This document shows, in pieces, positions 24,901 to 64,000 of a stretch of DNA of 64,000 nucleotides (positions are counted from its first letter, which is position 1; the number at the start of each line of letters is the position of its first letter). The position numbers and the translations under genes are program-made. The stretch lies in assembly GCA_023249675.1 (NCBI GenBank), contig JAHFCE010000016.1, positions 247 to 64,246 of the forward strand, written 5' to 3'. The notes beneath the pieces were generated by a model. It worked only from the letters and a program-made list of their open reading frames with translations. It was not told the DNA's origin and did no database searches. Source of the DNA: Elusimicrobiota bacterium. Its GTDB lineage: Bacteria; Elusimicrobiota; Elusimicrobia; UBA1565; UBA9628.

Positions 24901-24974
24901 CGCGGGGTAGAGCAGCCCGGTAGCTCGCAAGGCTCATAACCTTGAGGTCGCTGGTTCAAATCCAGCCCCCGCAA
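24901..24974 (+). tRNA. tRNA-fMet (initiator, anticodon CAT), CCA not encoded
   Basis: CGCGGGG/CCCCGCA acceptor stem with C1:A72 mismatch, CAAGG-CTCATAA-CCTTG anticodon arm, GCTGG-TTCAAAT-CCAGC T arm; followed by CGG. Confidence 0.95.
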
Positions 24975-44690: not shown

Positions 44691-47600
44691 TTGCGGATGG
44701 CTAAAACCAAGAAGCTCTTTGCGGCGGCCCTATGGCTTTTGGCCGCCTCCGGCTGGGCCGCCCAGACGGGAAAACTCGGGGAGCCGATTGCCGTCACGTT
44801 CTCCGCCCCCTCAGCCATCGAGTCTCCCGCCGTCCCCGTTCTCCCGCCCTCCCTGACCGGAACCCCTGTCCTCCCTCCGGCCCTGGCCGCCCCGCCTTCC
44901 ATCTCGCTTCCCACCCCGCTCTCCGTCCCCCGCGCCCCCGAGGCAGCGCCCGCAAGCCGGGGGACCGTCCCGGCCGCCGCCCAGAAAGGCCTGAGGGCCA
45001 TCGGCGGACAGCTCTCGGCCGGGGAGGCCGAACACGCGGCCGCGCTCGACCGCGCCTGGGATCTCTCCTCCCCGCGCGAGGCCGCGCCCCTCGCGCCCGT
45101 CCAATCCCAGGAGATCCCCGCCCCCCGCGCCGCCCCCGCCACGGCGGACCTGGGCCGAGCCGCGATTCAGGACTTGCTGGTCCGAGGCCTCCCCTCGGGG
45201 ACCGCGCGCGTGGTCGAGGGCGAGATCCTCTTCTGGGACCCCAAGCGCCAGAACATGGACCCTTATTTGGCCTCCCCCCACGACGACAAGAACATGGTCT
45301 CGGCCAAGACGCGCAACGAGATCGAGGGCTTGCGCCGCGTCTGGCTCGACGTCCGCGGGGCGCTCGCTGGCAAAGTCTCGCCCGACACCCTGGTAGAGGC
45401 CGACGCCCTCGTCGCCAAGGCCAAGGACGAAATCGAGAGCAACCGGCTCCGCGCCGAGATCATCATCGAGAGGCTCGCCGCGCGCATCACAGCCGACCCC
45501 TCCCGGAGCATGGGGCAGACCGCCGCCATCCTGGAAAAGGAACTCGTCCCCGCCCTCAAGAGCCGCCCCTCTTTGCTTTATCTCGCCGATGCCGCGGCCA
45601 ACATGGACCTGGAAAAGTTCCACGACGACTTAAAGCGCCTCGAAAAGGATCTGATCATGACCAAGATCCACGACCGCTTCCTGCGCCTGCTCTACGGCTT
45701 CGACGCCAAGACCCCTGAGGACGTGTTCGGAGAGCGCCTGATCGCCCAGATGCGGCGCATGGCCATCGGCGAGTTCTTCCCCCTCATCAACCGGGAGGTG
45801 TCGGCCGGCAAGACCGCCGAGCAGGCCTTGAACGCGGCCCTCGCCAAGATCCGAAGCCAGATCGAGGTGTTCCGGACCCAAGTCCTCCAGAACCCCAAAA
45901 ACCAGCTAGCCAAGAGGAACTTCGCCACCCTCGAGGAGATCGCCGCGGCCATGGAGGCCGTGCGCGATAGCCTGCGCGTCTATGACTATACCTACGAGCA
46001 GACCGACCTGCCCGAGGTCGCCCAGTCCAAAAAAGAGAGCGAGTACGCCCGCCACGAGGAGGCCTGGGGCCAAGCCCAGTCCCGTCTCCAGGGCCAGGCG
46101 CCCTCCACCGAGCTGAGCGCCTTCCTCGATGAGATTCAGACTTATCTGCGCTCCGAAATCTTGACGTTCGGCCGCCCCCTGCAGTACGCCGCCGCCGGGT
46201 TCTTCTCCCGCAACGCCGGGCGGCTCCAAAAGGTCAACGGAAAATTCGCCGACCAAGGCCTCGAAGGCCCGCTTGACTTCCTCATGGCCTACTCCCACTT
46301 CGCGCGCGGCGGCGGCAAGCAAGCCGCCCAAACGCGGGAACTCGTGGTCATGACCCGCGAAATCCGCGACGAGGCCGACTACCAAGACCTGCGCCTGGAC
46401 TTCCGCGAGCATGGGCGCATCGTCGGCATCGTCACGACGGGCTCCGCCGAGAACGGCGGGGCCAGCCGCATGCCCCACTGGGTCATCTTCGCCAAGGCCG
46501 ACGGAATCGTTCCCGTCCCCTGGGCCGGCCTCGACACCCAGGGCCTTCCCCTGGCCGATCTGGCCAAGCGCTTCGAGCGCCCCGGGGGCCGCCCGGGCAG
46601 CGCTTTGATCAACGGCAGGCGGGGCCACCTCCTGATCAATCCCACGGCGAAAAACCACGCGGACTGGACGGCCCGCGGCCAAGCCTACGGGCGCCTGGAG
46701 GAGCACTACAAGTCCCGCGCCCGGAAGCCCGTCGCCTTCAATGGGGCCCCCGTGCGCTTCCTGGCGGACGAGGCCAAACCCGCGGCCTTCCAGGGCGAGG
46801 GGCCCTCGGCCATCGAGGCCAGCGGTGCGAGCGGCGTGGGCCTGCTGCGCATGGAGCAGTTCATGAGCGAGGTCGGCGTCGAGTGGGACCGCGCCCAGCT
46901 CGCCGCGGGGCTTAAAACCATACTCCAGCGGCCCCTCTTCAAGAACGGCGCGCCCCTCGTCGTGAGGCTCTTCGATTTCGAGGGCGACAAAATCCCGAAG
47001 TTCGTCCGCCGCGTGGAGGCGCGAGCGCTCCTCCAGACCCACTCCAACGCGCGCTTCTATCTCGATGAAGGCCGCCCCGAATTCCGCGAGTTCGGCAAGA
47101 TGCAGCTCAAGGCCCTCTTCGACGCCCACATGAGCGCCCGCCCCGGCGGCAATGTCCGCGTCCTGTTCTCGAACGTCCGCAGCGCCAAGGAAATCCGCTC
47201 CATCGAGAAGCTGGTCGATGAGGCCGCCGCCGAGTATGCTGCCGAAACCGAGGACCCGGAGGCCGCCGCCCGGGAGCTCCAGCGCCTGCCCATCGGTTAC
47301 ATGATCGAGGACCTCGAGACCGTCAAGACGCTCGGCTCCTTCATGGCCCAGATCCGCAGGCTCCGCCAGGAGCGGCCGGCCGAACGTTTCCTAGCCCTGG
47401 GCACCAACGACTACCAGAGCTCGCTCTTGCGCGACGATCCCGTCGCCATCGAGAAGCTCGCCAAGCTCCACCCGCGTCTGGTTGAGGGCATCTGGAAGGC
47501 GGCCAAGGCCGCCGCCGCCCAGGGCATCGAGTTCACCGTGGACGGAGAGTGGGGCTCCGACCCCAGAATGCTCATCGCCCTCCTGGCTCTGCGCTCCTTT

Positions 47601-47861
47601 CACGACGCGCAGGCGACTCCGGTGGTCTATCCCGGCAGGGCGCCCGAGCTCTCGGAGATCGTGCGTAACCTCACAAACAAGGACTTGACCATGGCGGCCG
47701 ATGACGCCAAGGAAAGCTTGAAGAGCCTTCTCGATCGCCTCGGCAGCGGGAAGCGGCCCCCCGGCCTCGAGGAGTTCGACGCGGCGGCCGCGGCCGTCGC
47801 CGAACGCGTCGAGGATCGCATCCTCGCCGGGCTCGCCTCAGACCCGGACCAGAAGCCTTAA
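44691..47861 (+). CDS. signal-peptide protein with C-terminal PTS enzyme I (PEP-utilising)-like domains
   Basis: GGASRMPHWVIFAK (phospho-His position), GVGLLRME, VRLFDFEGDK, YMIE, LGTND, HPRL, VDGEWG (Cys replaced by Asp). Confidence 0.8.
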   Translation: MRMAKTKKLFAAALWLLAASGWAAQTGKLGEPIAVTFSAPSAIESPAVPVLPPSLTGTPVLPPALAAPPSISLPTPLSVPRAPEAAPASRGTVPAAAQKGLRAIGGQLSAGEAEHAAALDRAWDLSSPREAAPLAPVQSQEIPAPRAAPATADLGRAAIQDLLVRGLPSGTARVVEGEILFWDPKRQNMDPYLASPHDDKNMVSAKTRNEIEGLRRVWLDVRGALAGKVSPDTLVEADALVAKAKDEIESNRLRAEIIIERLAARITADPSRSMGQTAAILEKELVPALKSRPSLLYLADAAANMDLEKFHDDLKRLEKDLIMTKIHDRFLRLLYGFDAKTPEDVFGERLIAQMRRMAIGEFFPLINREVSAGKTAEQALNAALAKIRSQIEVFRTQVLQNPKNQLAKRNFATLEEIAAAMEAVRDSLRVYDYTYEQTDLPEVAQSKKESEYARHEEAWGQAQSRLQGQAPSTELSAFLDEIQTYLRSEILTFGRPLQYAAAGFFSRNAGRLQKVNGKFADQGLEGPLDFLMAYSHFARGGGKQAAQTRELVVMTREIRDEADYQDLRLDFREHGRIVGIVTTGSAENGGASRMPHWVIFAKADGIVPVPWAGLDTQGLPLADLAKRFERPGGRPGSALINGRRGHLLINPTAKNHADWTARGQAYGRLEEHYKSRARKPVAFNGAPVRFLADEAKPAAFQGEGPSAIEASGASGVGLLRMEQFMSEVGVEWDRAQLAAGLKTILQRPLFKNGAPLVVRLFDFEGDKIPKFVRRVEARALLQTHSNARFYLDEGRPEFREFGKMQLKALFDAHMSARPGGNVRVLFSNVRSAKEIRSIEKLVDEAAAEYAAETEDPEAAARELQRLPIGYMIEDLETVKTLGSFMAQIRRLRQERPAERFLALGTNDYQSSLLRDDPVAIEKLAKLHPRLVEGIWKAAKAAAAQGIEFTVDGEWGSDPRMLIALLALRSFHDAQATPVVYPGRAPELSEIVRNLTNKDLTMAADDAKESLKSLLDRLGSGKRPPGLEEFDAAAAAVAERVEDRILAGLASDPDQKP

Positions 47862-47880
47862 AAATATTTTTCCGGCCCGG

Positions 47881-48531
47881 TCATCGCGTCTTGACCAAGG
47901 CCCGGATATCCCCGACGGTGTCTCCTCTCCACCAGACGCCGACCTGAGTGGTCGAGTATGTTTCTTGAACCAGGCCCTTTCTGATGTAATCCATTTTTTC
48001 TCGCCTCACGCGCAGGACCTCGACGGAAACGGCGTCCGCGGGCTTCCCATATCTTTTTGGATCGGAATAAACCAATACGTATTTATCCTTTTCATCCAGT
48101 TCAGTCTCGGCGACAAAATGGACTGGCTGAGCGAATGTCGGAGGATGAGTGGCAAATTTCATCTCATTTGTTTTGTTGAAATCCTTGTCCAGCAGCACTC
48201 CGATCGGAATAAACACGTTTTTTGTGAAGCCGAAACAGGCGCAGTAGCTTTTAATTTCGAGGGTGCTGGAAGCTTTGAAATCCGGCAGCTCGAATAAAAC
48301 GGCACGGCTCTTGCCTGTTTCGAAATCAAAGGCCTCGCTCTTTTGGGAAATCTTGTAGGAGTATTTTTTGTTGTGTTCAAGATTATAACGCGTCAGGTCG
48401 CTTAACCTCCGCGCGGACGCTGTCCCATCTAAAAACTTCTGGGACCTGACGGAATAACCTCCGCAGCCTGAAAGAGAGAGAGTCAACGACAGGGATAAGG
48501 TCACCGCGGGAACGAGGAGGCTGTGTCTCAT
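47881..48531 (-). CDS. lipoprotein, MalM-like
   Basis: Lipobox LSGC; KSRAVLFELP..LEIKS..VFIPIGVLLDKDF; start moved to ATG 48531; lower GC. Confidence 0.55.
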   Translation of the reverse strand: MRHSLLVPAVTLSLSLTLSLSGCGGYSVRSQKFLDGTASARRLSDLTRYNLEHNKKYSYKISQKSEAFDFETGKSRAVLFELPDFKASSTLEIKSYCACFGFTKNVFIPIGVLLDKDFNKTNEMKFATHPPTFAQPVHFVAETELDEKDKYVLVYSDPKRYGKPADAVSVEVLRVRREKMDYIRKGLVQETYSTTQVGVWWRGDTVGDIRALVKTR

Positions 48532-48655
48532 AGGGAGATCAGTATGCCCTAAAATCAGCTTTCTTTCCACCCCGCCGCGACCTGGGCCTTTTGACCCGCA
48601 TCGATCGTCCCAAGAGGCCCTGAGCAGGGGCCCTCGGAATGGGTACCCTAGTAGC

Positions 48656-50023
48656 ATGCGCAGATGCGCGGTCGTCTTTGCGGCGTTTTTCTTGGCCGGC
48701 CAATGGCCCCAGCCGAGCTGGGCGCAGACGCGCGTCGTCCTGGACGCCGCCGCGGAGGCCGCGTCTGGCGCCGTCGCGGGTTCGGCGACGGCCTTGTGGC
48801 TGCCCCGCGAGACGGGCCGCCTCCTGCTTCCCGATGTCCGCCTGGTCCTTCCCGCGCCGACCCCACTGATCGCGCCAAGCCTCCGCCTCGCTGTGCCAGC
48901 CGCCCAGCTCCGGATCATCCTCCCGCGTGCGGACGCTCAAGCCGCTTTCCGGGATCGCGCGCCGCTCGACGGACTCCGTCAATTTGGACAAGCTCTCCTG
49001 ACGGCCGGGGCCAAACCGGATGAGATTGATCGGGACGCTGCTCTTTTGGAGCGCTTCTATTCAGGTTCGGCGCCATCGAATCAGGCTTTCGTGACGGCAG
49101 CGCCGCATGCGAACCCGCCGGCCGCGGGCCCCTCCGACACAACGTCTCTCGACCGCGCGGCCACAGTCAACGAGCATGTCGCGAGCTATACACATATCCC
49201 CCTCCCGAAAACGGCGAACCCTTGGATCGCCGTCGGGGTTGTCGCCGCTTTGACCGCCCTGGCGACCGCCGCCATGATCCCACTCTCCCTGCCACGCGAC
49301 GGCTGGGTGGGGATCACGGGCTGGCTCGGAAGCGGGATTTTGGTCGCCTTTCCGCTCGTTCATATCGTCGAGATCTATCGCGAGATGAGGACGCTCAAGC
49401 GCGGCGGCGAGGAAGCGGCAACCGCCAAGGCGCATCTGGGCGGCGTGAGCGGCGACCTGCATATCATGCTCAAGGCGGGCAAGCTGCTCAAGTACCCGGG
49501 AATCTACGCCTCCGCAAGTCCCACCCTCATGGTCAACACGATCTCGCGGACTGTCTTGAGTTGGATCGTCCTCGCCATGCTCACCAAGACCGGAAATCTG
49601 GCCAAGGCGAAATTCGCGATTGTGACCGTCGCGGCGGCCTCCTTGGTGGCCGTCACGCCGCTGATCGCAGGCAACCATGCCTTGGTGACCGCCCTTGGGG
49701 TCCTGGGCGCGCTCATCTACGCCTTGTTCACCCTCCCGCAGTATCGGCTCAACTACGAAGCCCTGCTCAAGCTGCGCAGCGTCGATCCCGGTGTCGCCCT
49801 GGGAAGTCTTGAACGGTTGCGCGGCAACAGCGCCCTTTTTCTAATCCTCATCATTATCGGGAAAATTCTCATCATCCCGACTTATATCGCGACGAGCTTG
49901 GTCTATAACGCTTCCTCCAATCTCTTTTCGGGACTGGTGACCTTGCTCATCCTGTTCCAGATGGGCACGGTGGGCCTGCTTCCCTGGCAGAACCGCCTCG
50001 TGCAAAAAAAGGGAGCGCCATGA
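48656..50023 (+). CDS. signal-peptide protein with PQ-loop-like multi-pass membrane domain
   Basis: About 7 TM segments; LFTLPQYRLNY and AFPLVHIVEIY loops. Confidence 0.6.
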   Translation: MRRCAVVFAAFFLAGQWPQPSWAQTRVVLDAAAEAASGAVAGSATALWLPRETGRLLLPDVRLVLPAPTPLIAPSLRLAVPAAQLRIILPRADAQAAFRDRAPLDGLRQFGQALLTAGAKPDEIDRDAALLERFYSGSAPSNQAFVTAAPHANPPAAGPSDTTSLDRAATVNEHVASYTHIPLPKTANPWIAVGVVAALTALATAAMIPLSLPRDGWVGITGWLGSGILVAFPLVHIVEIYREMRTLKRGGEEAATAKAHLGGVSGDLHIMLKAGKLLKYPGIYASASPTLMVNTISRTVLSWIVLAMLTKTGNLAKAKFAIVTVAAASLVAVTPLIAGNHALVTALGVLGALIYALFTLPQYRLNYEALLKLRSVDPGVALGSLERLRGNSALFLILIIIGKILIIPTYIATSLVYNASSNLFSGLVTLLILFQMGTVGLLPWQNRLVQKKGAP

Positions 50024-52035
50024 GAAAACCAATCTCGGCGCTCCTGGCGGCGCTTCTTTTCCTCTCTCCCCTCCAACCGGTCGCAGCGCAGGTCAGAAGC
50101 GGCGCCTCCTTTGAGGCGCCCCCGGGCCTCGGAAAGGTCCTCATTCCTCTATCCTCTCCGGTTCCCGGCGCTGCGCTGGACGGAGCGCTCGCCGCGGCAC
50201 CCGCGTCCGCGGCGCCGCTTATCAACGCGCCGGCCCCCACGCCGCAGCCCGCGCCCATCGGGGAAAAAGAGACTCCCGCCAAACCCTACAAGCCGCGCCG
50301 GACGAGCTACGACTACGGCCGCATGTTCGATCTCGCGCGGCGCGTGCTCTCGCGGCCCGAGGCGAGGCAATTCATCAAGGAGGTATTCAAGGAGGAGCTG
50401 ACCGTCAGCGACGAAGACCAGAGCAAATACAACCTTCCGGACAAGATCAAGGAGATCTCCGAAAGCCAGTTCATGCTCCTGCTCCAGTACAATCCCAAGT
50501 ACTGGCCGCTCATCGATAAGTACCTGGCCTCGGTTCCCGCGGCAAGCGAATCCAAGGCCACCGAGGAAAAACGCGCCAAATGGCGCGCGGCCTTCCGGGA
50601 TCTCGTCAAGAAAGACGAGATCGGCGAGACGTTTAAGCGCCTCAACGATCCCGTCAATCCTCTGCACCTCCAACTCGCGGGCGACGCCCCCGCCTACGGC
50701 GGCGCCAAGCTCTACGCCAATCACCAGACGGTCCTCGACGGCCAGGTCTCGCCCCCCGCCGATCTCAAGCGGGTCCTCCTCGAATTCATCGCCTCGGCCA
50801 AGGGCGAGCTGATGTTCAACGTTTTCGACTTCGACCTTCCGGACGTCGCCGACGCCCTGATCGCGGCGGCCGAACGGGGAGTGAAGGTCACGGGCGGCAT
50901 CGACAAGGGCAACGTCGACGGCCGCCCCGAGGTCAAGGCCGTCTTCGACAAGCTCTCCGGACACAAGCATATCAAGATCGTCGCGGTGGACTCGGTGGGC
51001 CTCAACCACCAGAAAATCGTCCTGCGCGACTGGAGCGATGAGAAGCTGGCCGCCTCCCTGTTCTCCTCGGGGAACTTCACCCAGTCCTGCATCGGCCCGG
51101 AGGGAGACCTCAAGAACATCAAGCCCACGCCCGCGGTCTCGGTGCCCAACGCCAATCACATGGTCACCCTGGAAGGTTACCTACCGGCGCAGATCGCGGC
51201 CAATAATCTCATCAAGACCCTCGAATTCGGCCTGCGCGGAAACGCGTATCCCCTGGGCGGCGCCTTCAAAGTCACGGGCCCCGCGGCCGCGGGCGCCGCG
51301 CAAGCGCCGCAGTTGGTTATCGCCTTCTCTCCCAAGGGAGGTCTGGGCGACATCAACCGCGACATCCTGCGCCGGCTCATCGTGGGCACGCGGGGCATCA
51401 TCCGGATGCTCCAGTTCGCTTTCTCCTCCCAGACCGTCCTGGAGGCCCTCATCGAGCGCGCCCGGCTCGAGATAAAGGAAGGCAACGCCTTCGACTTCAA
51501 GAGCGTGGGCGACACCCCATTCTCCATGCGCCCATGGGCCGTCTTTCTCGCGATGGCGGGCAAGGCGCTCCTCGAGGACACGAAGCAGTACGTCGACTTG
51601 AAGGAGAACCCCCTCAAGGATATTATGGGCGCCGAGGCGTACGAGGCAATGCTCAAGGACATCCGCGTCGCGCCCAAGGAGTACGGCAACAACCGCTTCA
51701 CGGACTCCGACGGCGCTGTCCGGGAGGCCAACGCGAAGCTCCACCACAAGTCTCTCATCTCCGGCCCCTTCACCGTCTTCGGGACCTCCTTCAACTTCAG
51801 CGAGAACGCCGAGCACAACAACGAGCAGATCCTCCTCACCGACGACCCCGCCATCCGGGCGGCGATGCTGGCGGTCTTCGACGGCTTTTTCCGGCTCAGC
51901 ACCCGCACCCTCGTTGAGGAAGCCGAACGCCGCAACCGGATGACCCAGGAAGACCGGGACGCGGACGGGCGCGATGACGACGAGTCGAAGCACGTCGAGA
52001 AGGAATCGGCGCGGGCGGGCAAAAAGGGCCCATGA
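50020..52035 (+). CDS. signal-peptide phospholipase D family protein
   Basis: NHQKIVLRD..SGNFT (HKD1) and HHKSLISG..TSFNFS (HKD2, Asp replaced by Gly). Confidence 0.85.
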   Translation: MRKPISALLAALLFLSPLQPVAAQVRSGASFEAPPGLGKVLIPLSSPVPGAALDGALAAAPASAAPLINAPAPTPQPAPIGEKETPAKPYKPRRTSYDYGRMFDLARRVLSRPEARQFIKEVFKEELTVSDEDQSKYNLPDKIKEISESQFMLLLQYNPKYWPLIDKYLASVPAASESKATEEKRAKWRAAFRDLVKKDEIGETFKRLNDPVNPLHLQLAGDAPAYGGAKLYANHQTVLDGQVSPPADLKRVLLEFIASAKGELMFNVFDFDLPDVADALIAAAERGVKVTGGIDKGNVDGRPEVKAVFDKLSGHKHIKIVAVDSVGLNHQKIVLRDWSDEKLAASLFSSGNFTQSCIGPEGDLKNIKPTPAVSVPNANHMVTLEGYLPAQIAANNLIKTLEFGLRGNAYPLGGAFKVTGPAAAGAAQAPQLVIAFSPKGGLGDINRDILRRLIVGTRGIIRMLQFAFSSQTVLEALIERARLEIKEGNAFDFKSVGDTPFSMRPWAVFLAMAGKALLEDTKQYVDLKENPLKDIMGAEAYEAMLKDIRVAPKEYGNNRFTDSDGAVREANAKLHHKSLISGPFTVFGTSFNFSENAEHNNEQILLTDDPAIRAAMLAVFDGFFRLSTRTLVEEAERRNRMTQEDRDADGRDDDESKHVEKESARAGKKGP

Positions 52036-53150
52036 GAAAGAACGCGGCGCTTCTCGTACTTCTGGCGGCGGCCTTCCCGTCCTTTGCGGCGGCCCAGACC
52101 AAATTGGGAACGCCTCCCGGAGCCCATCTCGCGGGAACGCCCATCTCCCCCGTCCCGAACCTCGCTGCTCCGACCTTCCAGCTGTACGCCCCATCTCCAA
52201 CGGCGATCCTGGGCGCCCCCGCCGCGGCCGCGCCAACACCCGTCCCCACGGCCCTCGCCGCCATCCAGCCGTCCGTCGCGACGCCGGACAAGGCCGGTTC
52301 CGATGCGCTCCGAGCCTCGGCCGCCGCCCTATTCGACGGCGCGGGAAAACTCTCGCTCACCGCAGCCGCGGTCGAGCCCGAGACAAGCGTCGTGGCTGTT
52401 GCGAACCTCGACGCCGCGCTCAAAACCCTGCGCGCGGCCTCCCATCCGCGCCATGAAACCACGGACGGCGTGCTGGCCAAACTCTCCGCTCTGTACCCCG
52501 ATCTGCCGCTCTCCCCCGACTTTGTTTTTCTGGTCCGGGATCCGGCCGCGCTCGCGCCCTACGGCATCCCCTCGGCCGCGGCGGGCGCGGCGCGCATCCT
52601 CTCCGACGGCCGCGACGAGCGCAAAGTCATCCTTCTGGTCGCGGGCCAAGGCGTTTCGCTTGACGACTTCATCGAGTATTCCCTCCACGAGGCCGTCCAT
52701 CTCAAAGACGACGGCATACTGCGCCTGCCCCATGAACGATTCGTAGAGCATTGGTTCGCGGAGGGCTACACCCAGCTGCGCGCCCATTCCATGGCGAACG
52801 CCGGCCGGCGCGCCCTCGGCCGTCCCGAGCGCGCCAACGGCGCCTATTCCCGCGAGGTCGCCGTCATCGAGCGCTTGATCGCCAAATACGGCGAGGCCCC
52901 GCTCAAACTTCTCGTCGAGACGGGCAGCGACGCGGGCCTACGGCGCACGCTGGGCCGGCGCTGGCAGGACCTGCTCGCCCTGGCGCACGAGAACAGATCG
53001 AGCACGCAGCGCCAGCGCGATTATTTCCTGCGATTGGCCGAAGTCGTCATCGCGCATCCCGAGTTCGGTCCCGACTCCTTCAGGGAAGCCGCGCGTAGGC
53101 TCCATGGCGACACCCTGGTCGGCTCTGAGGAACATGCATTGGACCCATAA
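52032..53150 (+). CDS. signal-peptide zinc metallopeptidase-like protein
   Basis: LHEAVH followed by WFAEGYT (gluzincin-type third ligand). Confidence 0.7.
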   Translation: MRKNAALLVLLAAAFPSFAAAQTKLGTPPGAHLAGTPISPVPNLAAPTFQLYAPSPTAILGAPAAAAPTPVPTALAAIQPSVATPDKAGSDALRASAAALFDGAGKLSLTAAAVEPETSVVAVANLDAALKTLRAASHPRHETTDGVLAKLSALYPDLPLSPDFVFLVRDPAALAPYGIPSAAAGAARILSDGRDERKVILLVAGQGVSLDDFIEYSLHEAVHLKDDGILRLPHERFVEHWFAEGYTQLRAHSMANAGRRALGRPERANGAYSREVAVIERLIAKYGEAPLKLLVETGSDAGLRRTLGRRWQDLLALAHENRSSTQRQRDYFLRLAEVVIAHPEFGPDSFREAARRLHGDTLVGSEEHALDP

Positions 53151-53228
53151 TCAAGCGGGCCGTTTAACCCGCCGGGATTAGGACTGAAGACCCGCCCCAA
53201 AATGAGCCGTCTGTGCCAAACTAATGGC

Positions 53229-53801
53229 ATGAATACGATCATCGCCGCCTTGTTTCTCACGCTGTCCTCAGTCCCGGCCCAAGCCGCCCAAGCCATCCCG
53301 GCTCTTGCGCAGCTTGAGGCCGCCGCGGAAAACCCCGGCGGCGCCGCCGCGGCCCTCGATGGTAGCTCCTGCGCCGGACCCGGGCTTGAACTCGTCTCGG
53401 AACGGAGGGGAATCTTGCTGAGAACCAGGAAATATCCGGCCAGACGCGTTCCTCATCCCGGCCCCGGGGACGTCAAGGGCCATTATCACAACCACAACAA
53501 CCGATACATCAACACTCCCGCGCACACGGAAAGAATCTACGGAGACATCCAAACTGTGAGAATTTCCGATCGCAGCGCCTATCAGCGCAGCTCGGCCCGG
53601 ACGGGAATGCTCATCGGCGGCGGGATCGGACTCCTGGGCTTTGTGGCCCTGCTCTGCGGGCCCGTCGGCTGGACGGTGGGGGCTGCCACGACGATTGCGG
53701 GAGCCGTCATCGGCAGCAACGTCGGCTATAACGAGGCCGCGGCAAAGCCCGATGTTTTTCAACGCGCGGTCAATCGGCGTTCCGAGATCAGCTACCCGTA
53801 A
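53229..53801 (+). CDS. secreted hypothetical protein with Gly-zipper hydrophobic hairpin
   Basis: Signal peptide; GMLIGGGIGLLG..GPVGWTVGAATTIAGAVIG. Confidence 0.65.
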   Translation: MNTIIAALFLTLSSVPAQAAQAIPALAQLEAAAENPGGAAAALDGSSCAGPGLELVSERRGILLRTRKYPARRVPHPGPGDVKGHYHNHNNRYINTPAHTERIYGDIQTVRISDRSAYQRSSARTGMLIGGGIGLLGFVALLCGPVGWTVGAATTIAGAVIGSNVGYNEAAAKPDVFQRAVNRRSEISYP

Positions 53802-53830
53802 ACCAAACGTCCCTATCGTAGGAGTCTAAA

Positions 53831-54895
53831 ATGAAGCAAGCTATTTTTCTGACGGGAGTTCTTCTGTTGGCGGGCGGCGGCTCTTTCGCCCAGGATGCCG
53901 GACCGCTCTCCGGACCCGACGAACTCCGGCGCCTCTTTAAGGCGGGCACGCCCGAGCAGAAAAAACAAGTCTGTTTCCAAGGCCTCAAGGCGGACGAACC
54001 CGCCCGCCCCGCCGACAGCGCCCTCGTGGAGCTCGACAAGGCCAGACAACGGATCGCGGACGGGCTTTCGGGCTCGGACCTGGCCAGCGCCTTCGCTCTC
54101 ACGCCGAGTCTGCGCGAGGCCGCCTCTCTGGCGGCCGCCCCGCGCCCCCAGGCTCCCAAGCCTGAGCGGGTCCGGACTCTCAGCGCCTCCACCGACCGTT
54201 ACCAAGCTCCAGACAAGCCTCTGAGCATCCAGGGCGGAGCCGGAAGCCAAGATTCGTTCCAGCTGTCGATCTATTACCGAATCCCGATCGCCGGCAACCG
54301 CGATTCGGGCACTTTCGCCGTGAGCCCGGGCCTCGGCTGGAATGTCTCGGGAGGCCAGGATAAGACTTTGGAACGCCAGTGGGTGAGCTCCTACCAGGGA
54401 TACGGCCATTCTTCCTATGACTACAACGGCCAGCCGGGCCATTACTACCTGGACCGGGACGGCTACGTCGAGCGCAAGGTCTCCCGCCGGCGCGCGGGGC
54501 GCGACCTCGTGGAGCTGGTCCGTTTCGACTACGAGACGCCGCGCCTGGGAGCCGTCCGTTTTTACGGCGGGACCGGTCTTGGCTACGGCACTCTCGACAC
54601 CCGGACCAGGACCGTCCAAACCTACGAACAGCATGAGAGGACCTACGACCCCAAGACCGGGACCTACAGCATCTGGCGCACGAACACCTTGAGCAGTCAG
54701 ACGCTGTCGAGCGGACCAGGTGAAAGGGCCAGCGCGGGCTTTGCCACGGCTTTCGTCGGCTGCCGCATCGACGGCCAAGGGCTTTGGGGTCTTCCCTGCG
54801 ACATCGTCGTCGAGTGCGAGAAGATGTTCTTGCCGGACTCCTTCGGCAAGGATGACCCCGTCTCCGTCACCGCCGGGGTCGGCGTGGGATTTTAG
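53831..54895 (+). CDS. secreted protein, probable outer-membrane beta-barrel
   Basis: Signal peptide, amphipathic strands (RFYGGTGLGYG), C-terminal VTAGVGVGF. Confidence 0.6.
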   Translation: MKQAIFLTGVLLLAGGGSFAQDAGPLSGPDELRRLFKAGTPEQKKQVCFQGLKADEPARPADSALVELDKARQRIADGLSGSDLASAFALTPSLREAASLAAAPRPQAPKPERVRTLSASTDRYQAPDKPLSIQGGAGSQDSFQLSIYYRIPIAGNRDSGTFAVSPGLGWNVSGGQDKTLERQWVSSYQGYGHSSYDYNGQPGHYYLDRDGYVERKVSRRRAGRDLVELVRFDYETPRLGAVRFYGGTGLGYGTLDTRTRTVQTYEQHERTYDPKTGTYSIWRTNTLSSQTLSSGPGERASAGFATAFVGCRIDGQGLWGLPCDIVVECEKMFLPDSFGKDDPVSVTAGVGVGF

Positions 54896-54910
54896 GCCGA
54901 CGTCCCCGGT

Positions 54911-55825
54911 CTAATAATCGACTTCCCAGGGCAGCCTTCGAGCCCCGCGAGACCGGGCTTCGCTTTCAGCGAACGGGAAGCGCGTGCGCCGGTTGAAAAC
55001 AGCGCCCTTCAAGTCGGCTCCCGTCAAATCGGCCCCGGTCAGGTCCGCCTCTCTCAGATTGCTCTCGTAGCCCCCGCTCAAGGGAGTAAAATCGGCGTTC
55101 GCCGCTTGGACGTGGCGAAAGACCGCCGCCGTCATGTCGGCCGATCGAAACTTCGCCCCGCTCAAATCCGCATAGCTGAAGTCGGCCAAAACGAGATGCC
55201 CCCCGCCGAGATCGGCTCCGCTTAAAGTCGCCGAAGACAGAACGGCGTCGATGAGAGAAACCCGTCTCATCTGCGCCTGGGCGAGATTGGCGTGAGTCAG
55301 ATCGCAGCGGTCCAAGGTCGCGTCCCGCAAATGGGCCGCCTCCAGATCAATCCCCGTCAGCTTCGCGCCGGAAAGATCCGTAAAAATCAGGTTGGCCCCG
55401 GATAAATCCGCTCCGCTCAGGTCGGCCCCGACCAAGCGCGCGCGGCTTAAATCCGCTTTCCTCAAACGGGCGCCGCGGAGATTGACGTATTTCATGTCGA
55501 TCACCAGACTGACCGACCACGCGCTCCGAAGATCCGCTCCGCTTAAATCCGCGCATTCCCCCTGTTTTGTCTCCCGCAAGGTTTTGACGGAAACGGAATT
55601 GTAGCCCGCTTCTCCGCGCCCGTTGCGGCACGAAAAGCCGGTTCCATTCCACTGCCATCGATAGCGAGACAGTTCCTCTTGGCTGGAGGCCCTCAGAGCG
55701 CTCTCGGCCGCATTGATTTCACGCAGAAAAAAACGATCCCCGCCTTGCTGAGCCCTCAGCAAAGACGGCAGAAGAAAAAGGGCCGCTAAGAGAAAAGTTC
55801 TGCTCATCCTATTCATGGTCGTCAT
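54911..55825 (-). CDS. signal-peptide pentapeptide-repeat protein
   Basis: Long A(D/N)LxG runs (ADLSGADLSGANL). Confidence 0.9.
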   Translation of the reverse strand: MTTMNRMSRTFLLAALFLLPSLLRAQQGGDRFFLREINAAESALRASSQEELSRYRWQWNGTGFSCRNGRGEAGYNSVSVKTLRETKQGECADLSGADLRSAWSVSLVIDMKYVNLRGARLRKADLSRARLVGADLSGADLSGANLIFTDLSGAKLTGIDLEAAHLRDATLDRCDLTHANLAQAQMRRVSLIDAVLSSATLSGADLGGGHLVLADFSYADLSGAKFRSADMTAAVFRHVQAANADFTPLSGGYESNLREADLTGADLTGADLKGAVFNRRTRFPFAESEARSRGARRLPWEVDY

Positions 55826-56045
55826 AAAACCTCCACGTAGAGGTATTGTAGCTCTCCAGCTGGGGAACGCCTGGGCCCTCCGTTCCAGAAAACACCGACA
55901 AAAGACCTAGCGAATGAAGGACTTCTGCCGCCAAAAATTCTCCCCCCTCGCCGACGATCCGTGGTACAATGTAGGCAGAGATCAGCGATGATCTTGCCAC
56001 ACAGACGTATGTGAGCAATACGCAAAAAAAGAGGAAGCAAACAGA

Positions 56046-56249
56046 ATGGCTACGGGCAAAGTGAAGTGGTTCAACGATCAGAAGGGCTTCGGTTTCATCA
56101 CGCCGGACGACGGGTCCAAGGACCTGTTCGTCCACCACTCGTCCATCACGGGCGAGGGGTTCAAGACTTTGGCTGAGAATCAGGCCGTTGAGTTCGACGT
56201 GCAGCAGTCCGACAAGGGCCCGCGCGCCGCGAACGTCCGCAAGCTCTAA
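56046..56249 (+). CDS. cspA: cold shock protein
   Basis: [31 protein letters not shown]. Confidence 0.97.
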
Positions 56250-56270
56250 TTCGAGCGCTGACCTGAGAAC

Positions 56271-56308
56271 GCCCCCGGCGCCGCTCGCGGCGCCGGGGGC
56301 TATTTTTT
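56271..56308 (+). terminator. intrinsic terminator of cspA
   Basis: GCCCCCGGCGCCGC/GCGGCGCCGGGGGC stem then TATTTTTT. Confidence 0.85.
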
Positions 56309-56442
56309 GCGCGAGAAAAAGATGGACAACCGCGCCCAGACATGCTATAATGCCTTCGTCGCTTTCGAACCCGTAACGAGAAATGTCGGGACCTAGACCC
56401 TCCGCGAGTTAAGCGGGGGGTTTCGTGTTTATCGGACCGCCT

Positions 56443-58599
56443 TTAGTCCATAAGGATGGAAGGTTCGGCGAAGCGGGACTTGGCCTCTCCCGCGCTCCGC
56501 AGGAGCTCATTGTCTGGACGATCCCTCTTGAGGACGTAGTGCAGGGCGAGATCCTCCTTCCCCTTGGGGCGGTCCACCACGGCCACGAAGTCGGCGGTCA
56601 AGTCCATCGGGTCCACGAGCTGGACGAACACGCGCAAGGCGCGATCATAGGATAGGCCGCTCTGCCCCAAGCCCCCGAAAGCCTTGGCCAGCGCCGCGGA
56701 GCGAGACTCGTTGTCAGGCGCGTTGCGCACCGCGAGCAGGTCGGCGACCAGGCCGGAGGCCTCCTGGGCCAACGCCCGAAGCTCGTCTTTTTCATCTCTG
56801 CACCCGATGAAACACAGGAACCGATTCATGACGGACGGGGAATCGGCGACAGCGGCGTAGGATTTGACGATGTCCTCGGACGTCGCGGCCATCAGCTGCT
56901 TGACCGCCTCCTGATTGAAGACGAGAGTGAAGGCGATCGAGGCGTTCCGGTTGGAGGGCTCCTGATTGGCGCCGGGAGGAGCATAGGGATCGATGGGGCG
57001 GCCGAAATCGGGCTCGGGCGCCGGGGGCGGCACGGGGAAATATTGGGCAAGCGGCAGGGCCAGGCGCGGGTTCGCTCCGTTGCCGTGCGTGCCGGCCAAG
57101 GCCATGATGTCGCTGAACTGCGCGGCCGTCTCGCGGACGGAGGACTCCGTCGTGCGCAGGAAGCCGTGCTGTTGGATATAAACCACGATCGGGTCGCCGT
57201 AAGCCTCACCGGCCTTGGCCTGGGTCACGACCTGGACGTCGCGCTGAACGTTGTCCTTGATCATCGGCCCGACGAACGGGAGGATCACGTACTCGGAGGC
57301 ACGAGACTTGTCGGCGTGCTCGAAGTGATACTCGCCTCCCTCGCCGCCGTAGCGCGCCGTCGTGTCGTCGCCCTGAAGGGTCGCCCAGTTCTGGGCGGTC
57401 AGCAGAGGCAGGTTGAGCGTGGTCAACTCGGCCTTACGCGCGTAGGCGTTGATCGCCGCATAAGACGCCTCTCCCAACTGCGCGTCGTGCTCCGCCTTCA
57501 TGCGCAGGTAAGCGGCCTCCACATTCTCATCGGTGGCCTGCTGGGCGCTCATGCGCCAGCCCATCTTGACCAAGGATTCGAAGTCGCCGTGCAAGGCTGC
57601 GGCGACCGCCTCGGCCTGCGCGGGATCACGTGGGTCCACGACGTACTCGAGAAGGACGCGCTTGCCGTGCGAGCTGGAATGCTCGAACCCGAGCGAGGCC
57701 GCCGTGTAACTCTTGAGCCGGCGGGCGGCCTCGCGGTCGATGAATTTGGAGAGGATATCGGCCCCCAGAGAGGCGAACTGCGCCGCCGGGATGGTCTCGG
57801 CGATTTGGCCTCCCTTCGTGCGGACCTCGACGCGATCGACGCGGAATCGAAAGCGCAGCGCGGACTCGGAGAGGCGGTAGATCGTCAGCGCCGCCGCCCC
57901 GGTTTCAGCGCCGTTGAAGGAGAGCGAGATGTTGAGGTTTTCGGCCGCCGCGTCGGAAAGCGTCTCGGCGTGGCCGACGGTCAGGCGGAAGGGAAGGCGC
58001 CATAACTCGCCGATTTTCATCGCCGCGATGCGCTCGCCCTTCAAGGGCAGGATGGTCTTGATGTCGCGAAGATCCACGAGCGTGTCGAGCTCCTTGCACG
58101 TGGCTTTGCCCTCCAAAGGGCGGATGACCATGGAGGAGCCCTCGAGGCTGCCTCCAAGCCGCAAAGCCACCGCCGCACCCGCCGCTTGGCCGAGGGCCTC
58201 GGAAAAAGCATGGCTGTAGCCCACTCTCAAGGTCTCCTCATCGATGACCGTCAGGCGGCCGTCGGGACGCGGGGCCAGCCAACGCTTAAAGCCCGTCCCC
58301 GTGCCGCCGAAGTCTCCGGGAAGGTTATACTCGTAGCGGAGCCTGACGTTGCGGCAGAGCTGGTCGAGAACACGTTCGCGCATTTTCTCGCCGAAGCTCA
58401 CGCGTTCGGGAGCGGAAAAACCTCCTTCCGGCGTGGTCGGACCGACCGGCGAGGCAGGTGTGCTGCCCGGGTCGGCCGCAAGCGAGATGTAGGCCTGCCA
58501 CTCGCTGTCGCCGTCCGCGTCCGGAACGGCAGCCAGAACCGCCGAGCAAGACAGGGCGAAAGAGGCGATCAGGACGGCGCGGCTGAAACGTCCACTCAT
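56443..58599 (-). CDS. secreted hypothetical protein, 718 aa
   Basis: Signal peptide; no recognised domain. Confidence 0.75.
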   Translation of the reverse strand: MSGRFSRAVLIASFALSCSAVLAAVPDADGDSEWQAYISLAADPGSTPASPVGPTTPEGGFSAPERVSFGEKMRERVLDQLCRNVRLRYEYNLPGDFGGTGTGFKRWLAPRPDGRLTVIDEETLRVGYSHAFSEALGQAAGAAVALRLGGSLEGSSMVIRPLEGKATCKELDTLVDLRDIKTILPLKGERIAAMKIGELWRLPFRLTVGHAETLSDAAAENLNISLSFNGAETGAAALTIYRLSESALRFRFRVDRVEVRTKGGQIAETIPAAQFASLGADILSKFIDREAARRLKSYTAASLGFEHSSSHGKRVLLEYVVDPRDPAQAEAVAAALHGDFESLVKMGWRMSAQQATDENVEAAYLRMKAEHDAQLGEASYAAINAYARKAELTTLNLPLLTAQNWATLQGDDTTARYGGEGGEYHFEHADKSRASEYVILPFVGPMIKDNVQRDVQVVTQAKAGEAYGDPIVVYIQQHGFLRTTESSVRETAAQFSDIMALAGTHGNGANPRLALPLAQYFPVPPPAPEPDFGRPIDPYAPPGANQEPSNRNASIAFTLVFNQEAVKQLMAATSEDIVKSYAAVADSPSVMNRFLCFIGCRDEKDELRALAQEASGLVADLLAVRNAPDNESRSAALAKAFGGLGQSGLSYDRALRVFVQLVDPMDLTADFVAVVDRPKGKEDLALHYVLKRDRPDNELLRSAGEAKSRFAEPSILMD

Positions 58600-58759
58600 T
58601 TGGTTATTGTAAGTCCCTGACGCTCCCCGCGCCCGGGCCTTAGGGCCTAGAAACCCGCCGCTAAGCGGCCCGGGGGATACTAAATCGGTAACAAGGTTTG
58701 GCTACACTCAAGCTCAGACGGCGGCGGACGCCGACGGACCGCGACAGGATGACAACACG

Positions 58760-59524
58760 ATGATGAGCCGAGGCGTCCCCGCCGTCCCCCATCAGACTCA
58801 GGGTCCCGTTCAGGCTCTTTGCCTCGCGCTGATGCTCCTGGCCTGCCCCGCGCGCGCCGACGACTGGGCCGAGTCCGCCCGTCCCGTGTATCGAGGCGTG
58901 GAAGCCGTGGCCGACGGCGTGTATGGCCTCGTGCGCGGCCACCTGATCTCCGCACTCCTCCCCGGCCGCCTGTCGCGCCGCATGAGTGCCGTACCTGTCG
59001 GAACCTCCGAGAAGATTTTTTCCGAACGCCTACACGAACGCCAGGAGAAGGCATCCCGCCGTCTCCTGGACGCTCATCCCGTCGGCCCGCTCGGTCCCGC
59101 TGATACCGCCGCTTGGCGGCGGCGGGCCGTCAATTCGCAGGCGACCGTCGTCACCGACGCCATCGCCGACGCCTTGGTTCGCCGCTATCAGCTCGAGCGC
59201 TTCGGCAAGGACTCCGGCGCGTACGCCGCGAACGTCTCCAACTGGGACCCCGAGTTCCTCGTGTCCGCCGGCGTCCTCGGCGGCGCCTACCTGTATGTCG
59301 CAGGCCTGCGCACCGATTTTTCCATCGGTCCCCTGCGCGTGGACTTCGACACCCGCCCCGGCGCGGCCATGCAGGGCGCCCTCCAGGACGGCGACGCCCC
59401 CGGCTTGGCCGCGCTGACATTGTCTCGCCGCGGCTCCCCCCTCTCGTTCAAGACCGAGTGGGGCGTCAAGGACGGCCGCATGGCCGCCGACAAAATCGGC
59501 GTCAATTACTCAACGCGCTTCTAA
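58760..59524 (+). CDS. secreted hypothetical protein ending in Phe
   Basis: Signal peptide (LMLLACPARA); C-terminal KIGVNYSTRF. Confidence 0.65.
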   Translation: MMSRGVPAVPHQTQGPVQALCLALMLLACPARADDWAESARPVYRGVEAVADGVYGLVRGHLISALLPGRLSRRMSAVPVGTSEKIFSERLHERQEKASRRLLDAHPVGPLGPADTAAWRRRAVNSQATVVTDAIADALVRRYQLERFGKDSGAYAANVSNWDPEFLVSAGVLGGAYLYVAGLRTDFSIGPLRVDFDTRPGAAMQGALQDGDAPGLAALTLSRRGSPLSFKTEWGVKDGRMAADKIGVNYSTRF

Positions 59525-62942: not shown

Positions 62943-63003
62943 TCTAGCAGAAGCGTCCGAAGTGTTGGACGCCGATGCCGACCGCATGATCTCTCTCATG
63001 AAA

Positions 63004-63027
63004 AATTGTCTATAAAAATAGACAATT
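63004..63027. promoter_or_regulatory. perfect palindrome, candidate operator between malQ and the divergent kinase gene
   Basis: AATTGTCTAT-AAAA-ATAGACAATT. Confidence 0.55.
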
Positions 63028-63176
63028 GGTGGAAACACGTTCAAGTCTCCGAGCCGGCATAGCAAGCCCCGGGCGAAGTTGTCTATGTCATTGATTAACA
63101 CTTGCAGGTCTCTTGGCCCCGCCGCCTAGGACCTTTGCACCTGGCTGCGCATCCCTCTAGAAGGCCATACTGACGT

Positions 63177-64000
63177 ATGGGTAGAAAAGCCTTCTGCAGC
63201 CTTCTGGGCTTGCTCTCGGCAACCGTCCCGGCTTCGGGCTGGGCGACGAAGATCGTTGGGTCCGTTGCGGCCGCGCCGCCGGCGATCCATGTGCCCCCGG
63301 CTGCGCCGTCTTGGACTCAGCCGTCTCACCCCGGACTTGCCTCCTCGATTCCAGTCCTCCCGTCTCTGGTTGCCGCGGCGCCAGCGTCGCCTCCGGCATC
63401 GCCTCTTCCGGTCCTGAAGCAAATCGACGTTTTCTCGAGCCAAGCCCTGAAGGTGTCTTCTCCAGAAGAGGGCGTCCGCGCCACCGGATCAGTTTTCGAT
63501 CGGGCGGCCGGCGAGGAAGGCACGGTCGTCGCGCCGGACGGATCGCTTGACCCTCTCCAGCTCGGCGGCCTCCGGCACAGCTGGGGCAAGCCTCGTCTGA
63601 AGGATCGGAAGCTGGAAGTCTTGGGCAAAGGCTCTTTCGGCACGGTGTACGCGCACCCCCTCATGCCGAGCGCTGTCATCAAGATAATGGCGACCCTCTC
63701 ATCCAAGGACGCGCGGCTGGAAGCCGAACGAGAACGACAAGTCGGCCAGGCTTTGGCGCGAGCCGGGGCTGGCCCCCAAGTCTTGGGCGTGGCGTCCCTC
63801 CCCCGCAGCTCCTCTGGCCTACAGCGCTGGCTCTGGAACCGACTCGGAATCAACGACCGGGCGCTCGTGATCAAAGAAAGGGTCTATGGCCGAACCGTCG
63901 AAGACATGATTCGGAAGCGTCGTTTTACTCGAAACGACTACGAGCTGATCCAGCGGATGCTGGAACGCATGGCGCAGGCCCGCATCCGGGCCCAGGATCT
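63177..64000 (+). CDS. signal-peptide protein-kinase-like protein, truncated by window end
   Basis: Hand translation: MGRKAFCSLLGLLSATVPASGWA, Pro/Ala linker, LGKGSFGTVY, AVIK, EAERE, IKERVYG, ending RIRAQD; not in the ORF track. Confidence 0.8.
   Translation, partial: MGRKAFCSLLGLLSATVPASGWATKIVGSVAAAPPAIHVPPAAPSWTQPSHPGLASSIPVLPSLVAAAPASPPASPLPVLKQIDVFSSQALKVSSPEEGVRATGSVFDRAAGEEGTVVAPDGSLDPLQLGGLRHSWGKPRLKDRKLEVLGKGSFGTVYAHPLMPSAVIKIMATLSSKDARLEAERERQVGQALARAGAGPQVLGVASLPRSSSGLQRWLWNRLGINDRALVIKERVYGRTVEDMIRKRRFTRNDYELIQRMLERMAQARIRAQD

Follow-up and report, generated by a model that had tools for sequence, protein, structure and literature searches.

The DNA analysed here (the window: 64,000 nucleotides, positions 247 to 64,246 of contig JAHFCE010000016.1, assembly GCA_023249675.1, from an Elusimicrobiota bacterium) encodes at least seven proteins with a common N-terminal layout, termed the leader: a signal peptide of the Sec/signal peptidase I (SPase I) type, a spacer and, often, a short helix with a small motif, the island. 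The leader marks a real and distinct class of cysteine-free proteins, and the finding is more general than the window alone. We give an even chance to the reading that it is a lineage-specific N-terminal module of high-GC Elusimicrobiota for exported sorting or tethering, the island docking to a shared envelope partner. The module would be placed ahead of unrelated cargoes (a PLD-superfamily protein, an HExxH protein, a small kinase and an enzyme I-like (EI-like) enzyme) and would also extend membrane proteins at their N-terminus; once a protein had been exported by Sec and cleaved, the spacer would become an extended, disulfide-free tether and the helix with its island a docking element for a common envelope partner, which would route or hold the leader proteins unlike ordinary periplasmic ones. 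The likeliest route would be a second step, either outer-membrane passage or surface display, that requires unfolded, cysteine-free substrates.

Signal peptides and the clade-specific spacer

An earlier note on this DNA, made from the sequence alone, had described at least six unrelated proteins at 44691-64000 sharing a Sec-type signal. All of the open reading frames (ORFs) that it named exist and could be read, although one of them, a giant protein (5842-15882, minus strand), falls outside those coordinates. The signal peptides have a positively charged n-region, a hydrophobic region of 12-20 amino acids (aa) and a Pro or Gly 4-7 residues ahead of a small-x-small site; every leader protein read has the basic n-region, h-region, helix breaker (-4 to -6) and small residues (-3 and -1) of Sec/SPase I substrates. 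Position +1 after cleavage is mostly Q (A-x-A/Q, the slash marking the cleavage site), often followed by T-x-R/K. The "AQ" ending singled out previously is present but is not specific to leader proteins, as the clade's cytochromes, outer-membrane-protein-like proteins and other signal-peptide proteins have it as well, and the A-x-A/Q c-regions of leader proteins agree with those in genuine periplasmic and outer-membrane proteins from these genomes. The residues just after the cleavage site are basic, not acidic (basic-only in 7 and acidic-only in 0 leader proteins, versus 8 and 11 of the others, Fisher p=0.01). The Tat consensus (S/T-R-R-x-F-L-K) was not found in leader proteins, of which p455 alone has RR (MRRCAVVF; others MRK, MGRK and MRMAKTKK), nor was a lipobox (SPase II), there being no Cys at or near the cleavage site of any of them.

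The leader region is covered by no Pfam, NCBIfam or PDB model. Pfam searches of 10 window proteins and 10 proteins of relatives gave no two-partner secretion (TPS, Haemagg_act) domain, autotransporter beta-domain or POTRA partner, no csgG-like gene was seen in the window, and no curli-type domain occurs among the Pfam matches of the scanned window ORFs. The cargo domains confirmed by Pfam or NCBIfam in the window are an M50 domain and two ClpB-like AAA+ modules, PEP-utilizers_C, PLDc_2 with two HKD motifs, and a YrbL-type kinase.

The spacer comprises 60-190 aa, mainly Pro, Ala, Leu, Val and Ser, with few charged residues; the Pro/Ala linker proposed earlier (60-120 aa) is present in each protein, over this wider range. 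Leader proteins have a median of 34.5 aa for the longest run free of D, E, K and R, other signal-peptide proteins one of 16 aa (p=0.006). The spacer is read in frame (GC content at third codon positions peaks in frame 0), and that of the EI-like protein evolves fast, with more nonsynonymous than synonymous changes relative to an 86%-identical ortholog in which 22 of 25 signal-peptide codons are identical.

In approximately 0.5 Mb of Elusimicrobia loci, a Pro/Ala segment directly follows the signal peptide in about 28 of 91 signal-peptide-like proteins, from at least 12 unrelated families, and apparent exceptions are over-extended ORFs. It was found in none of 35 signal-peptide proteins of other high-GC (at least 60%) metagenome contigs (218 kb). 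The leader layout is thus shown to exist and to be limited to this clade, and the spacer is not a mere high-GC habit.

The PLD-superfamily protein (50020-52035, plus strand) has a signal peptide (50020-50088), a spacer (50089-50304) and a cargo starting at 50305 (SYDYGRMFDL...), which contains two HxK(x)4D motifs (NHQKIVLRD and HHKSLISG...GTSFNFS) and matches PLDc_2 in two stretches. It has 222 homologs, from Elusimicrobia where identity is 45% or higher and from Bdellovibrio, Bdellovibrionales and Oligoflexia where it is 44% or lower. In Elusimicrobia the cargo follows the signal peptide at a median distance of 121 aa (42% Pro plus Ala), in Bdellovibrionota/Oligoflexia at one of 7 aa; 59 of 64 homologs of the latter group have a signal peptide or lipobox, and therefore the cargo was ancestrally exported. 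The difference of 121 versus 7 aa shows, at the level of sequence comparison, that the spacer was inserted, specifically in Elusimicrobia, into an enzyme already exported in its ancestral form. The PLD family as a whole (including P0054-P0125) is almost confined to Elusimicrobia and predatory Bdellovibrionota/Oligoflexia (38-44% identity), and one Cys (SSGNFTQSC) is conserved throughout it.

Cysteine exclusion and the aromatic-Asp-Gly island

With leaders removed, the cargoes of the leader class (the giant, the EI-like, PLD and HExxH proteins, L083-442, a 520-aa family, a four-domain PLD protein from L030, and L111-394) have 2 Cys among 6,147 residues (0.03%) versus approximately 57 expected, a depletion of about 30-fold (P ~1e-20), whereas Cys makes up 0.92% of residues in 71 cytoplasmic-like families and 1.10% in spacerless signal-peptide proteins (1.0-1.1%, same genomes). 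The leader cargoes contain the usual amounts of Trp, Tyr, Phe, His and Met. Polytopic leader proteins are likewise poor in Cys (an MFS transporter, 0; p455, 0; L001-448, 1). The spacerless signal-peptide proteins encoded at 54911-55825, 56443-58599 and 58760-59524 served as internal contrasts, which keep cysteines or lack a leader, and spacerless exported neighbours hold even numbers of Cys (p354, 4; p718, 4; cytochromes, more). Because spacerless exported proteins keep their Cys, the exclusion is specific to the leader class and not a mark of export as such. By analogy, this is the pattern that would be expected of substrates that need to stay disulfide-free after Sec export; periplasmic disulfides stop the outer-membrane passage of autotransporter passengers (PMC1533851). 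A more far-reaching reading, an undescribed two-step export pathway in which the spacer and an [F/Y/W]-D-G island would be the signal that takes Cys-free unfolded enzymes across the outer membrane, to the surface or to another cell, is quite unlikely.

The EI-like leader protein (1056 aa from a TTG start, 44691-47861, plus strand; gene-caller start 44697) has a leader of 174 aa followed by a helical N-domain of about 460 aa, a swivel-His segment and a TIM barrel for binding of phosphoenolpyruvate (PEP). Its signal peptide as read from the sequence occupies aa 1-24 (...SGWAA/QTGKLG, 44691-44762, plus strand), and by sequence comparison the spacer (44763-45212, plus strand) contains a helix, G100-LRAIGGQL (44988-45014), and an island, W123-D-L (45057-45065). 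There is no Cys in 1038 mature residues; in canonical enzyme I homologs Cys amounts to 1.04%, and the CGE motif is present in 61 of 95. The barrel matches PF02896 (3e-19) and in alignment to 2BG5 keeps GLLRME, VRLFDFEGDK, MIED and GTND, with the PEP-binding residues (equivalents of R296, R332, K340, E431, N454 and D455) aligned to those of enzyme I. The catalytic Cys of enzyme I (CGE motif, Cys502) is replaced by Asp (DGEWGSD), no PEP-utilisers_N match was obtained, and TIGR01417 scores 61 bits versus a cutoff of 342; on these sequence features the protein is classed as EI-like and not as a PtsI. A word-indexed search gave one close homolog, and HMMER places the cargo of about 850 aa (window 45200-47840) at 31-36% identity within proteins of 2,891-7,647 aa (P0131-P0145), most of which start signal-peptide-like and have 0-6 Cys in total (P0134, 7,647 aa, has 0). 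These giants also bear ACT, HATPase_c or PTS-HPr domains, in one case with HPr directly after the PEP-utilising domain. They share an N-terminal motif, IPExLGxIxE...IQDAH.

The island, [F/Y/W]-[D/S]-G-[A/S], caps a short helix approximately 30 aa ahead of the cargo. In the giant it is F161-D162-G163 (GLRAVLEKLRTFLGRSGSETFDGS; 15394-15402, minus strand), and across 15 orthologs of deep divergence the only positions of the leader of about 200 aa that are conserved in at least 90% are K-S in the signal peptide, A-A-Q and F-D-G, with both flanks of F-D-G variable. Outside the window, among nine leader families selected purely by the presence of a signal peptide plus spacer, FDG occurs in 4 versus 0.49 expected (Poisson p=0.0016), and it stands at the end of the spacer in L001-448, L028-271 (ALRAYFDGAA), L083-442 (RRFDGAANRE) and a 294-aa family. 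Of 29 otherwise diverged spacers of PLD orthologs, 9 contain the pattern [FYW][DSG]G (as in LDKGFDGT, LDLAYDGA, LGPVFDGS and LRRLYSGI), whereas shuffled sequences give 1.0 +/- 1.0 and, in 1000 shuffles, never more than 4; every occurrence is 28-51 aa ahead of the cargo. Distant EI-like relatives (33-46% identity) retain LRxLGxANxxLxRF and, about 25 aa further on, E(I/L)W(D/T)G. These alignments show, as far as sequence conservation can, that selection constrains the island in a subset of families. Helix and island together probably form an amphipathic helix capped by aromatic-Asp-Gly.

Two elements of the motif as first described fare less well. The L(R/K)xx helix is kept in the distant EI-like relatives, and no significance is claimed for it outside the EI-like family. 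RMFDLA in the PLD protein is no leader motif: it is the conserved first helix of the cargo, found as SYDYxxIFDL in Bdellovibrio homologs that have no spacer.

Among smaller members of the class, the HExxH protein (the "zincin" of the earlier note; 52032-53150, plus strand) has a signal peptide (52032-52094), a charge-free spacer of 61 aa, ALRASAAALFDGA with F-D-G at 52332-52340, and 0 Cys; no family or structure was matched in Pfam, NCBIfam or PDB. A 199-aa protein, p199 (53202-53801, plus strand), has AAALDGS (L-D-G at 53355-53363) in a short leader following its signal peptide, a C-terminal Gly-zipper or transmembrane (TM) segment and 2 Cys, and its membership in the leader class is weak.

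Motif statistics, membrane topology and competing explanations

Several results weigh against a sorting or tethering role for the leader. The signal peptides were called by a home-made heuristic, not by SignalP. The island is strict in just about 40% of families, and de novo recovery of the motif was poor: a Gibbs search (one occurrence per sequence, OOPS) on seven window leaders gave z=0.2-0.9 relative to block shuffles, leave-one-family-out hidden Markov models (HMMs) of the leaders were not significant, and neither was a position-specific scoring matrix (PSSM) built from the sites of six relatives and tested on the window set. A Gibbs search with 12-14 families converged on [GA]A[AL][FL]DG at z=1.5-1.9 only, and a PSSM cross-test with p=9e-5 is discounted, its training sites having been picked by eye with the window motif in mind. 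With the PSSM, HMM and Gibbs tests non-significant or marginal, the idea of a universal motif across leaders was dropped. The aromatic-D/S-G motif proposed for the window proteins is enriched and constrained in a subset of families, but it does not emerge significantly de novo from the window alone; likewise, enrichment over shuffled linkers holds for the PLD spacers (9 of 29 versus 1.0) and fails for the window set.

That Gibbs, PSSM and leave-one-out tests all failed for the window set is what would be expected if the leader were an artefact of high-GC low complexity and generic signal peptides, its motif picked by eye. That explanation is already largely refuted and very improbable, given that control high-GC contigs have no such spacer, that FDG is enriched, invariant in the giant family and fixed in position before the cargo, and that the Cys exclusion has P ~1e-20. 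The lack of a significant shared linear motif de novo also suits a passive spacer, that is, a disordered linker spanning the periplasm or peptidoglycan, added by this clade to exported proteins and to N-out membrane proteins; the helix and FDG would then be a structural cap or oligomerisation element and no second sorting would take place. The near-neutral evolution of the spacer, its occurrence on membrane and soluble proteins alike and the export of the PLD cargo without a spacer in Bdellovibrionota point the same way. A passive spacer leaves unaccounted for both the 30-fold, leader-specific Cys exclusion and the invariance and constant position of the island, and an N-terminal linker that is free after signal-peptide cleavage tethers nothing; we regard the passive spacer as unlikely.

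Membrane topology raises a further conflict, in that the leader also heads polytopic inner-membrane proteins (the giant, p455, the MFS transporter and L001-448) that are unable to leave the cell. The transporter family, MFS-577 (L027, 5589-7322, plus strand; L033, 13247-15010, plus strand), combines 12 TM segments with a signal-peptide-like N-terminus and a Pro/Ala leader of 150 aa. Its core is canonically N-in (motif A after TM2; 23 K/R on in-loops versus 3 on out-loops), and given that core and the positive-inside counts, the leader end (KKSVRW) must, if topology rules hold, lie in the cytoplasm, despite the start MR-TILAIWIAVLPGVSAA/QTVTR. The first segment, with one basic residue per flank, may be an N-out anchor, making a 13-TM protein with a long cytoplasmic disordered loop. 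The giant and p455 lean the same way, ambiguously, as a weak or short hydrophobic segment in each (T2 of p455; "TMx" of the giant) shifts the parity. The latter protein, p455 (48656-50023, plus strand), has a signal peptide (48656-48724), a charged, Pro-rich leader, GLRQFGQAL...ERFYSGS (Y-S-G at 49058-49066) and 5-7 TM segments, and matches nothing in Pfam, NCBIfam or PDB; p455 and L001-448, compared as possible homologs, are not homologous. A type-I topology with the Pro-rich stretch as stop-transfer anchor was rejected, each candidate segment containing 5-12 prolines and giant orthologs not being hydrophobic there.

The giant (3346 aa, 5842-15882, minus strand) consists of a signal peptide or signal anchor (aa 1-33, ...MPVAA/QTFRAG, 15784-15882, minus strand, read from the sequence), a Pro/Ala spacer with GPRWV repeats, the FDG island, an M50 site-2-protease-like membrane domain, approximately 12 repeats of an alpha/beta unit of about 100 aa, two ClpB-like AAA+ modules and a HEAT-like tail. 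Orthologs of 2,300-3,350 aa are syntenic beside mgtE in at least 15 Elusimicrobia loci. The site-2 protease signature is HEISH (263-267) with NMLPLPQLDG (approximately 391-400; PF02163 28.9 versus a cutoff of 27.2), and the ClpB/Hsp100 assignment is based on AAA_2, AAA_lid_9 and ClpB_D2-small matches with the Walker A and B motifs (GxxGVGKT and hhhhDE) in nearly all orthologs. The protein falls below the ClpB equivalog (TIGR03346, 498 bits versus a cutoff of 1232), and its AAA+ modules lie within residues 1950-2640 of a membrane protein instead of forming a free-standing, soluble one of about 860 aa. We know of no described fusion of an intramembrane protease with Hsp100 of this kind. Since 7-8 predicted TM segments separate the leader from the AAA+ modules, the earlier claim of an exported Hsp100 is unsafe and the ATPase of the giant is most likely cytoplasmic. 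Nearly all of 11 orthologs have exactly two Cys, as C-x5-C after the sixth TM segment (C495/C501, PCSYDYWC, 14380-14400, minus strand, at the same position in orthologs L007-L028), opening an acidic loop of about 160 aa, and the exclusion of Cys from a probably cytoplasmic region of 2,600 aa is unaccounted for by an exported fate. The sequence GPRWV(K/G) occurs 2-3 times in the giant's leader (15490-15650, minus strand), and in some orthologs also directly ahead of the first core TM segment; it may be an Arg/Trp motif of the membrane interface.

These topologies would be accommodated if the hydrophobic segment were an uncleaved anchor and the spacer held cytoplasmic enzymes at the inner-membrane face, an arrangement that would account for the ATP- and PEP-dependent cargoes, the N-in core of MFS-577 and the positive-inside patterns of p455 and the giant, and with which the basic early mature region (disfavouring Sec export) and the TM length (21-24 aa) of the giant's N-terminal hydrophobic segment agree. 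Such a cytoplasmic tether is nevertheless improbable: the N-flanks have 2-4 K/R versus a net 0-1 on the C-side, predicting N-in/C-out, the c-regions resemble the ones found in genuine periplasmic and outer-membrane proteins, the PLD cargo of Bdellovibrionota orthologs is an exported enzyme, Pro-rich spacers are unable to form a returning TM helix, and the exclusion of Cys is left unaccounted for.

The cargoes themselves pose the next difficulty. The YrbL-type kinase (63177-64000, plus strand, running past the window end; full length P0003, 351 aa) has a signal peptide (63177-63245) and a charge-free spacer of 55 aa, with VLKQI...VRATGSVFDRA (F-D-R at 63495-63503) followed by GKGSFG, VIK, DLRTSN and DGD; an AlphaFold2 model from a 3-sequence alignment reached a pLDDT of 36. 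Neither the kinase nor the EI-like enzyme has a TM segment after the leader, and both keep their catalytic motifs, as do the AAA+ modules. The periplasm has no ATP or PEP, so that export there would sit badly with the retained motifs. This paradox, raised in the earlier note, stands for the kinase and the EI-like enzyme, and not for the Hsp100 modules of the giant, which are probably cytoplasmic.

A way out of the paradox had been proposed: the leader as a second-step signal that sends effector-like enzymes (kinase, EI-like, PLD/nuclease, proteases) into the ATP- and PEP-containing cytoplasm of a host or prey. The intact catalytic motifs of the kinase and EI-like enzyme without a following TM segment, the suitability of Cys-free proteins as translocated substrates, the PLD homologs that are signal-peptide proteins of predatory Bdellovibrionota, the EI-like module in signal-peptide, Cys-free giants resembling those of predatory Omnitrophota, and the scarcity of homologs of the cargo genes, which is often seen with effectors, are all consistent with it. 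Against these stand the leaders of the MFS transporter, p455 and the giant, all bound to the membrane of the producer, together with genomes of 3-3.8 Mb, metagenome-assembled genome (MAG) names that point to 0.1-0.2 um groundwater filter fractions, and nothing that points to any host or prey. The window showed neither injection nor outer-membrane machinery, and no partner, channel or secretion gene was identified in a survey that did not extend to whole genomes, which bears equally on docking to an envelope partner. Delivery into a host or prey has a low probability. What persists of the proposed second-step signal is a distinct class with a clade-specific spacer, a constrained island and Cys exclusion, while the polytopic carriers and the MFS topology speak against a simple delivery signal.

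Gene context, related systems and significance

The window belongs to a 65% GC contig from a groundwater metagenome and contains a 49-57% GC island at approximately 21.7-44.6 kb. This low-GC island (21700-44650) adjoins tRNA-Met (24901-24975) and contains genes for a serine recombinase, a tyrosine integrase, a 717-aa C5 DNA methyltransferase (DrmMII-like), a DndB/DpdB-like protein, a DAC-domain protein and an AbiEii/AbiEi pair. The cluster of leader genes starts exactly at the border of this low-GC island. The best matches of the MgtE protein (16916-18274) in a scan were all Elusimicrobia MAGs from groundwater or soil (61-93% identity). Several matched MAGs have names that indicate 0.1-0.2 um filter fractions. 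Two related genomes measure 3.1 and 3.8 Mb. In a search for expression data, the locus was present in DNA groundwater metagenomes only.

Within the cluster, consecutive genes for p455, PLD and the HExxH protein share 4-nt overlaps (ATGA), and p199 and then the outer-membrane-protein-like p354 follow downstream on the same strand, which suggests a single operon with p455 first and p354 last. The latter (53831-54895, plus strand) does not count among the leader proteins: no spacer follows its signal peptide, and it has 4 Cys and a C-terminus (...VTAGVGVGF) like that of an outer-membrane beta-barrel. It gave no match in Pfam, NCBIfam or PDB sequence searches and is a candidate partner. Other neighbours are a gene with lipobox LSGC (47881-48531, minus strand), and three proteins with a signal peptide and no spacer: a pentapeptide-repeat protein (54911-55825, minus strand), the 718-aa p718 (56443-58599, minus strand; a tandem duplicate in relative L083) and an outer-membrane-protein-like protein of 254 aa (58760-59524, plus strand; C-terminus ...YSTRF). 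Beyond the window, the kinase gene overlaps by 4 nt with a downstream gene for a 388-aa signal-peptide HExxH protein (L164, 2066-3232; homolog of L111, 5592-6776). With the PLD/HExxH (52032) coupling, this makes "enzyme plus HExxH protein" a recurring pair. A "lipid operon" for the kinase was rejected, as the CDP-alcohol phosphatidyltransferase gene lies downstream only in a relative's genome, and in the window strain the kinase is coupled to the HExxH protein.

The module is apparently covered by no described family or system, and functionally its closest analogs would be curli N22, TPS domains and colicin docking epitopes. In curli biogenesis (type VIII secretion), a post-Sec N-terminal segment, N22 of CsgA, directs an unfolded, cysteine-free substrate to the outer-membrane step at CsgG. 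The order of Sec signal peptide, N-terminal segment and cysteine-free substrate is the same here, whereas N22 is 22 aa long, Gly/Asn-rich and without Pro/Ala spacer or FDG, and its cargoes are amyloid subunits, not large enzymes. Colicin and pyocin translocation domains have an unstructured N-terminus with a TolB box (DGSGW) and a TonB box. They resemble the leader in having a long disordered N-terminal region and a D-G-S-type docking epitope ahead of a cytotoxic enzyme cargo (nucleases); the likeness is one of layout and not of sequence relationship, for they have no Sec signal peptide, are Gly/Ser/Asn-rich, and their epitopes act in the target periplasm. TonB, TolA, the OmpA hinge and lipoprotein linkers are extended Pro-rich envelope spacers that set distance. 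They are anchored at one end, by a TM helix or a lipid, and highly charged (EP/KP repeats), in contrast to an almost charge-free spacer with an N-terminus that would be free after cleavage. Type V secretion likewise follows Sec export with outer-membrane passage of largely unfolded, Cys-poor passengers (PMC1533851), and the targeting region of TpsA is N-terminal, but it is a folded TPS domain of 250 aa instead of a disordered spacer with a short linear motif. In the giant archaeovorin proteins of predatory Omnitrophota, described in a bioRxiv preprint, signal or TM segments precede PPDK/PEP-utilising, glycolytic, HATPase_c, AAA and HEAT domains that are predicted to be extracellular, topology calls that the authors themselves doubt (10.1101/2023.11.21.568195); the window proteins differ in having a single cargo and 350-1050 aa.

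A module with a constrained motif and an exclusion of Cys defines a class that can be counted in genomes and tested by reporter fusions. Elusimicrobiota are almost uncultured, and to our knowledge nothing is known of how they sort envelope and secreted proteins. Even if the leader were a mere tether, gene callers and localisation predictors would misread the proteins that carry it, and the MFS transporter illustrates the converse risk, that a signal-peptide call is over-trusted. Two-step export, if true, would explain the Sec signals on the kinase, the EI-like enzyme and similar cytoplasmic-type domains, and the pathway might also exist in organisms encoding related signal-peptide, Cys-free giants. 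If the leader is a sorting signal, it would represent a new post-Sec route and would offer a handle on the ATP- and PEP-dependent domains that stand behind export signals in the giants of ultra-small predatory bacteria.

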